Shown in pieces: positions 5,263 through 6,465 of a stretch of DNA of 64,000 nt (positions are counted from its first letter, which is position 1; each line of letters begins with the position of its first letter). The stretch is from contig JAYKIS010000003.1 of NCBI GenBank assembly GCA_035286125.1, positions 6,264-70,263 of the forward strand. The letters are read 5' to 3'. A program made the position numbers and the translations under genes. Origin of the DNA: Candidatus Sericytochromatia bacterium. Its GTDB lineage: Bacteria; Cyanobacteriota; Sericytochromatia; S15B-MN24; VGJW01. The notes beneath the pieces were generated by a model. It searched no databases and was not told the origin of the DNA. It saw only the letters and a program-made list of their open reading frames with translations.

Positions 5263-6465
5263 TTAACCTGCGGCCACCTCGCTGCCCAGTGCGGCAAGGG
5301 TGGCCGCGGCATTCAATTGCCCGGCACCGTGTCGTTCGTCGGGCCCCGGAGGCCCCAGGTCCTCCGCCCCTGCCCGCAACAGCGCAGCCACGCGAGGCGC
5401 GCCGAGACCCGGCCGCAGGCTGCGCAGCAGGGCCGCCACCCCTGAAACGTGGGGTGCCGCCATGCTGGTGCCGGACATGGGCCACCAGCGACCACGCGGC
5501 AAGGTCGAGAGGATACCCGTACCCGGCGCCACGAGCGTCATCCAGACGCCGTAGTTGGAATAGTCCGCCAGAACGTCCCCCTGACGCGTGGCACCTACGG
5601 CGATGACGCCGCGGTTGGCTGCAGGACAGAAGGCCTGGAAACTGCCGCTGTTGCCCATCGCCGCCACGACAACCGCACCCTTGGCCAGGGCGTGATCGAT
5701 GGCGGCCTGCTTGGCCTGGGCTCCTTCGCGGCTGCCGATGCTCAGGTTGATGACATCCGCCCCCATGTCCGCTGCCTTGATGATGCCCTCGCAGACCCGC
5801 GCCACGGTGCCCTCGCCCTAAGCATCCATGACCCTCACAGCCATCAGCATCGCCCCGGGTGCAACGCCCGAGATTCCCAGGCCATCGTCCGCCGTCGCCC
5901 CGATGATGCCTGCGACGTGCGTGCCGTGGCCGTTCGGGTCATAGGGGTCGCCGTCACCCTCGACGAGGTCGATTCCGGGCACCAGCCGGCCTACCAGATC
6001 CGGATGCGTGCCGTCGATGCCGGAATCCACCACGGCCACGCGCACCGTCTGGCTCCCGCGCGTGGCCTGCCATGCCTGCCTTGTCCGGATGCGATCGAAG
6101 CCCCACTGGACTCCCCCGGCGCCCGATTCTTCCAACCAGCCGGGGCCCCGCCAACCTTGGGCAGGGGGCAGGCTCTCGCGGGCGTTGCGTTCCATCCAGG
6201 CCACGCCCTCGAGCACAGGGCGACCCGATGCCCGGGTGCGGACCAACCAGAGGCCGCCGCCGAGCGGACGCCGAGCCTCGACGGTATCCGCCCCTTGCCA
6301 CTCCGGCTGCGCCCCGGCGAACGAGACGATCCATTCCCGTCCCGTAGCCAGCGTGTCGAGGTCGAAGGCCTGCCTGCGGACCACCACGCCAGCCGGGGAA
6401 GTCCCCGTGCCGCACGCCGCAAGCAATACGGCTGAAAGCGACGTCGCCACACTGAAACCGTTCAC
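5263..6465 (-). pseudogene. Second S8 subtilisin-like lipoprotein protease interrupted by one in-frame TAG (at 5820-5818)
   Basis: ORFs 5818..6660 and 5263..5805 are in the same frame, separated only by TAG: ...VRVMDA*GEGTVARVCEGIIKAADMGADVINLS. Motifs VVDSGID, HGTHVAG and GTSMAAPHVSG are present. Probable GTG start at 6465 with GGGAGG upstream, followed by signal peptide and lipobox LLAAC. Confidence 0.75.

Follow-up and report, generated by a model that had tools for sequence, protein, structure and literature searches.

Subtilisin- and thermitase-like peptidases (MEROPS S8A; PF00082), among them exported lipoprotein forms, need the Asp-His-Ser triad in one fold. The gene described here lies on the minus strand of a 64-kb stretch of DNA, which was analysed as a whole and is called the window below. 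It resembles these enzymes in its full-length Pfam match, in the order Asp, His, Ser, in the DSG, HGTH and SGTSMA motifs and the oxyanion Asn, and in its N-terminal pro-region and lipobox (LAAC). It differs from them in a reading frame that is cut between His180 and Asn272, in a Tyr-to-Cys change (Y280C), and in the loss of a signal-peptide charge (R5S). A second point of comparison is provided by young bacterial nonsense pseudogenes. With these the locus shares a one-step change from sense codon to stop, conservation of the rest of the gene, intact orthologues and an adjoining paralogue (3695..5248). Nothing essential differs, the one additional feature being a sister lineage whose frame is open and carries near-neutral missense changes. 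Finally, systems of stop-codon reassignment and recoding, such as certain phages that read TAG as Gln, the use of pyrrolysine at UAG, and programmed readthrough, have in common with this locus an in-frame TAG in a conserved enzyme domain and Gln at that position in the relatives. Unlike in those systems, genes of the window use TAG as an ordinary terminator, and the internal TAG is a single, unconserved occurrence for which we found no suppressor tRNA or structure.

Taken together, the analysis leads us to a genuine, evolutionarily recent nonsense mutation, CAG (Gln216) to TAG, that has made a young pseudogene of the ordinary kind out of a chromosomal gene in an uncultured Candidatus Sericytochromatia bacterium; we put the probability of this reading at roughly 0.88. 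It is a textbook case of a young nonsense pseudogene, in a genome apparently derived from a MAG.

The S8 lipoprotein gene and its internal TAG

The sequence, the list of open reading frames and the translation all give a single minus-strand frame for the S8 subtilase lipoprotein, running from GTG at 6465 to TAA at 5265..5263 and broken by one internal TAG (Table 1). This premature stop at codon 216, which reads CTA on the plus strand, is embedded in a frame that translates as ...AVRVMDA*GEGTVARVCEGIIKAADMGADVINLS, and it sits between catalytic His180 and Asn272/Ser334. When the two halves were joined with an X placed at the stop codon, the resulting 400-aa protein matched the Pfam family Peptidase_S8 (PF00082) with 191.5 bits, against a cut-off (gathering score) of 21.8. 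The match forms one stretch, residues 139-382, that runs across the stop. D147, H180, N272 and S334 all fall in invariant columns of our alignment A1, and the order Asp, His, Ser is kept together with the oxyanion Asn. No uninterrupted polypeptide holds all of these catalytic residues, as TAG216 parts D147 and H180 from N272 and S334.

At the N-terminus, residues 15-18 (read by eye from the sequence) are L-A-A-C, follow SLSAVL and conform to the lipobox pattern [LVI][ASTVI][GAS]C. The n-region, V-N-G-F-S-V-A, holds no K or R and so lacks the positive charge expected of lipoproteins. Residue 5 is R or K in the orthologues, and R5S removes the sole positive charge of this region.

The GTG at 6465, 215 codons before the stop, is the real start and occupies the same position in all orthologue gene calls. 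We rejected ATG 6660, the start of the open reading frame 5818..6660, because that ATG falls within the divergent reductase gene (6577..8610) and the starts of the orthologues match GTG 6465. Downstream of the stop, the bases of the GTG at 5805..5803 belong to conserved coding sequence for G-E-G-T-V in all orthologues, so this start site is fortuitous. Any product begun there would be devoid of a signal peptide.

Table 1. Positions of the disrupted S8 gene, its landmarks and neighbouring features in the window
Feature	Position	Strand	Remarks
Disrupted S8 subtilase lipoprotein gene	5263..6465	-	GTG start 6465, TAG codon 216, TAA codon 401; syntenic orthologues 401-416 aa
Signal peptide, lipobox L-A-A-C, Cys18	6412..6465	-	R5S (AGG>AGT, 6451..6453) private to window
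Catalytic Asp147 (VAVVDSGID)	6025..6027	-	upstream of stop; invariant column, alignment A1
Catalytic His180 (HGTHVAG)	5926..5928	-	upstream of stop; alignment A1
Premature stop TAG, codon 216	5818..5820	-	from Gln codon CAG, C>T at 5820; shared with Logan contig L005
GTG four codons past TAG	5803..5805	-	preceded by GAGGG; source of separate 180-aa gene call
Oxyanion-hole Asn272 (AAMGNSG)	5650..5652	-	downstream of stop; alignment A1
Y280C (TAT>TGT)	5626..5628	-	private to window; nearly invariant Tyr of YPAA motif
Catalytic Ser334 (SGTSMAAP)	5464..5466	-	downstream of stop; alignment A1
Derived terminator TAA, codon 401	5263..5265	-	CAA>TAA, C>T; drops last two residues Q-P
Ancestral terminator TAG	5257..5259	-	persists two codons past new TAA; orthologues end here
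Convergent paralogue, S8 with fn3-like C-terminal domain, 517 aa	3695..5248	+	intact; ends TAG, 14 bases from pseudogene end
FMN/2,4-dienoyl-CoA-reductase-like gene, 677 aa	6577..8610		divergent to S8 gene
T2SSF, pilC-like	27440..28756	-	
T2SSE ATPase, pilT-like, 368 aa	28710..29816	-	
MshEN+T2SSE+zinc-ribbon ATPase, pilB-like, 637 aa	29861..31774	-	

The TAG is accompanied by a second derived stop at the end of the gene, where the window reads GGT TAA CCG TAG, L002 and L078 (two of the orthologous contigs introduced below) read GGT CAA CCG TAG, and a third, L001, reads GGT CTA CCG TAG. In all, the window lineage has acquired 9 synonymous and 6 non-synonymous changes within the gene, the latter being R5S, L62V, A100P, Q216*, Y280C and Q401*. 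Besides Q216*, the private changes R5S, Y280C and Q401* are probably damaging as well.

These results bear on several statements of the first-pass annotation. Its central observation, one frame broken by a single TAG at 5818-5820, is borne out, and the catalytic motifs and lipobox that it placed on the two sides of the stop were located as Asp147, His180, Ser334 and Cys18. Its description of an otherwise intact gene is right as regards these motifs and slightly overstated in view of Q401*, R5S and Y280C. The extent that it gave for the upstream part (5818..6660) has to be shortened to the true start at GTG 6465.

The C-terminal domain of the convergent paralogue is fn3- or purple-acid-phosphatase-N-like, and this protein is about 36% identical to the product of the pseudogene. 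Farther along the window, a dip in G+C to 0.61-0.64 (about 0.67 elsewhere) at 27440..31774 on the minus strand coincides with type IV pilus genes, and the next open reading frame (31850..33691) encodes a Roadblock/LC7 domain at its C-terminus.

Ancestral codon, substitution pattern and constraint

The best protein matches were S8 peptidases of Candidatus Sericytochromatia MAGs and metagenomes. They comprise P0001 (92% aa identity, 401 aa; JGI 3300045421, contig L001, Ga0438295_000469, gene 8062..9267), P0002 (89%, 402 aa; Logan SRR20069374, contig L002) and P0003 (71%, 416 aa; GCA_035285865.1, contigs L003/L004), to which the metagenome contig scan added L078 (84%; Ga0194133_10000053). The window, L001, L002 and L003/L004 have the same gene order, FMN/2,4-dienoyl-CoA-reductase-like gene, S8 gene, convergent S8-fn3 gene, indicating that these are true orthologues. 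The first-pass annotation had proposed a comparison of orthologues: Gln occupies codon 216 in each of the five syntenic ones (71-92% aa identity), encoded by CAA in L001 and L078 and by CAG in L002, L003 and L004. More distant homologues carry Q, N, V or E at this residue. The change is therefore CAG>TAG, brought about by a C>T transition at 5820 (gene sense) and polarised to the window lineage; the ancestral Ser, Thr or Asn and the step from TCG that had been suggested before are wrong. Scans of genomes and metagenome contigs, which gained L078 and re-found JAYKHS01, did not turn up the TAG allele a second time, and among 5.8 billion clustered proteins the identity of intact ones did not exceed 92%.

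Substitutions were polarised with L001, 94.1% identical in nucleotides over 14.5 kb, as the sister lineage, and with L002 and L078 as outgroups. In a region of about 7 kb, 118 changes were thereby placed on the window lineage. As 54 of them (46%) are C:G>T:A, a C>T event is of the most expected kind. Their density is 12.5 per kb in the S8 gene, compared with 11.6 and 13.8 per kb in the flanking genes. A cluster of cytosine-deamination hypermutation or damage, which we considered on account of both new stops being C>T, was rejected: the share of 46% C:G>T:A is lineage-wide, and the density in the gene is that of its neighbours.

When compared with L002, omega was 0.22 upstream of the stop and 0.086 downstream of it. 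The low downstream value reflects strong constraint and shows no decay so far, which suggests that inactivation was recent. On the window lineage, the ratio of non-synonymous to synonymous changes was 6:9 in the S8 gene and 12:34 in its neighbours, not significantly different (p = 0.34). In the sister lineage L001, private changes numbered 24 non-synonymous and 10 synonymous in the S8 gene, whereas the genes on either side had 27:62 (p = 8e-5 by Fisher's test). Given about 875 non-synonymous and 319 synonymous sites, 24:10 points to near-neutral evolution. The L001 gene has kept its open frame, and its changes include near-invariant Gly columns and a site next to the catalytic Asp; this copy looks like a neutrally drifting gene that is still without a stop.

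Readthrough, assembly error and the meaning of TAG

Suppressor-free E. coli has been reported to insert Gln at UAG and UAA, and basal readthrough in bacteria is typically well below 1%. In yeast, the residues placed at UAG and UAA by near-cognate suppression are Gln, Tyr and Lys (PMC4150775). It is conceivable, though improbable, that a near-cognate tRNA (Gln, Tyr or Lys) reads TAG216 at low frequency, which would make the allele hypomorphic and not null. As the ancestral residue is Gln, part of any readthrough product would be wild-type, and the coding sequence downstream of the stop is indeed still undecayed; a very young pseudogene, however, predicts such undecayed sequence equally well. 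Moreover, nothing points to programmed readthrough, as the stop is found in no orthologue, all of which have Gln codons there. A search of 4800..7000 against Rfam with an E-value threshold returned nothing relevant, the only hit being a chance pestivirus match on the opposite strand and outside the gene. The fold of the 131 nt at 5830..5700, which start just before the TAG, had a z of only -1.63, with 14 of 200 shuffles at least as good. With no relevant Rfam match, a fold that is not significant and a stop that is absent from the orthologues, we discarded a recoding RNA element and see no support for programmed readthrough. Basal near-cognate readthrough could yield traces of full-length protein, and nothing suggests a level above background. 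We consider it very doubtful that near-cognate decoding of UAG216 restores the ancestral Gln in part, so that a trickle of full-length protease is made from a hypomorphic allele. If this were true, a population of Sericytochromatia would carry a down-tuned exported protease and not a dead gene.

A sequencing or assembly error, with CAG in the true genome and an ordinary intact protease gene, would hinge on one single base. Without exception, the closest relatives of the window are MAGs or metagenome contigs; it thus apparently stems from a metagenome-assembled genome, and this lends such an error some plausibility. Against it stands a separate Logan assembly. A search for exact copies of the 517-aa protein encoded next door led to contig SRR19514065_42603 (L005, 5736 bp), which agrees with window 1623..7358 at every base but one, 5311, and carries the same TAG and the same TAA. 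In that contig the gene is annotated as two proteins of 215 aa and 180 aa, each labelled Peptidase_S8. The mismatch (A/G; position 3689 of L005) is synonymous and lies inside the pseudogene: the ancestral AAC is present in L005, as in L001 and L002, and the derived AAT in the window. This difference, together with the shared TAG, means that two distinguishable haplotypes carry the stop, and the presence of the stop on a second haplotype in a separate assembly makes a random read or assembly error unlikely. The window's 677-aa reductase had no exact match in the sequence look-up. An error is also at odds with the intactness of the other genes in the 15.7-kb syntenic stretch, with a substitution density in the S8 gene equal to that of its neighbours, and with the lack of a closer intact protein in the clustered set. 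A minority CAG allele may exist in the population, and the two assemblies may share a systematic error if they were built from the same reads. Overall, we regard an error as very unlikely.

We also looked at how TAG is used across the window. At least three conserved genes are terminated by TAG at their expected ends: the S8-fn3 gene (TAG 5246..5248), whose 517 aa are the length found in L002 and L003, an aldehyde dehydrogenase (TAG 18245..18247), which stops exactly at the end of the Pfam profile (461/461), and an HD-domain protein (TAG 62381..62383; profile 170/170). The subtilase gene's own ancestral terminator is TAG, too. A six-frame scan of the 64 kb was then made for stops flanked on both sides by coding-like sequence, defined by GC3 of at least 0.72 and GC1 > GC2; the second filter is needed because GC3 by itself lets through a great excess of stops, most of them in antisense shadow frames. 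Among the 19 candidate stops, a single one, 5818..5820, lay within a domain. Four others had protein-like translations, and all four proved to be ordinary neighbouring genes, one Pfam domain closing at the stop and a different one opening beyond it. The remaining candidates, judged by eye only, translated into low-complexity sequence rich in Arg and Pro, as non-coding frames of GC-rich DNA typically do. Similarly, when the genes of L001, L002 and L003 were compared with window 1..15.7 kb by tblastn, the other syntenic genes were single stop-free segments and the S8 gene alone contained stops, two in number. The window encodes three tRNAs, Pro-GGG (11382..11456, minus strand), Ser-TGA (15014..15100, plus strand) and Phe-GAA (25991..26064, plus strand); none of the three has the anticodon CUA, and there is no suppressor among them. 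A literature search turned up nothing relevant on stop-codon peculiarities or recoding in Sericytochromatia.

A change of genetic code or dedicated recoding, with TAG as a sense codon for, e.g., Gln or pyrrolysine, is thus vanishingly unlikely: both derived stops replace Gln codons (CAG>TAG, CAA>TAA) and superficially recall codes that read TAG and TAA as Gln, but C>T is just the class of change seen most often on the window lineage, TAG ends conserved genes at the profile end or at orthologue length, including the ancestral end of this very gene, no other real gene in the 64 kb is interrupted, no tRNA-CUA occurs in the window and no literature on recoding in this group was found.

The first-pass annotation had left three options side by side. 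A very recent nonsense mutation is the one that holds up, with a sense codon one step away in the orthologues, low omega downstream and the stop in a second assembly and haplotype. A sequencing error lost ground to the repeated TAG in SRR19514065, and readthrough in the sense of programmed readthrough or recoding found no support in orthologues, tRNAs, Rfam or fold.

Predicted consequences for the protease and its clade

With the TAG as a recent nonsense mutation, translation would end after residue 215. The resulting fragment would comprise the signal peptide, the pro-region, Asp147 and His180, would lack Asn272 and Ser334, and would be exported and possibly lipidated. With the catalytic residues split by the stop, it is predicted to be inactive as a protease. 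The downstream 180 codons, if translated from the GTG, would have no export signal, and their product could not meet the exported half. From these features we infer that protease activity would be lost.

For annotation, this means that the 215-aa and 180-aa calls belong together in a single entry marked as a pseudogene, and should not be listed as two proteases; nor do the two calls argue that Sericytochromatia use an alternative genetic code. Together with the near-neutral changes in L001, the pattern suggests, at the level of sequence comparison, that the gene may be dispensable in the clade and under loss by different routes in two lineages. One species group thus seems to be losing an exported S8 lipoprotein, whereas constraint on the adjoining paralogue persists.
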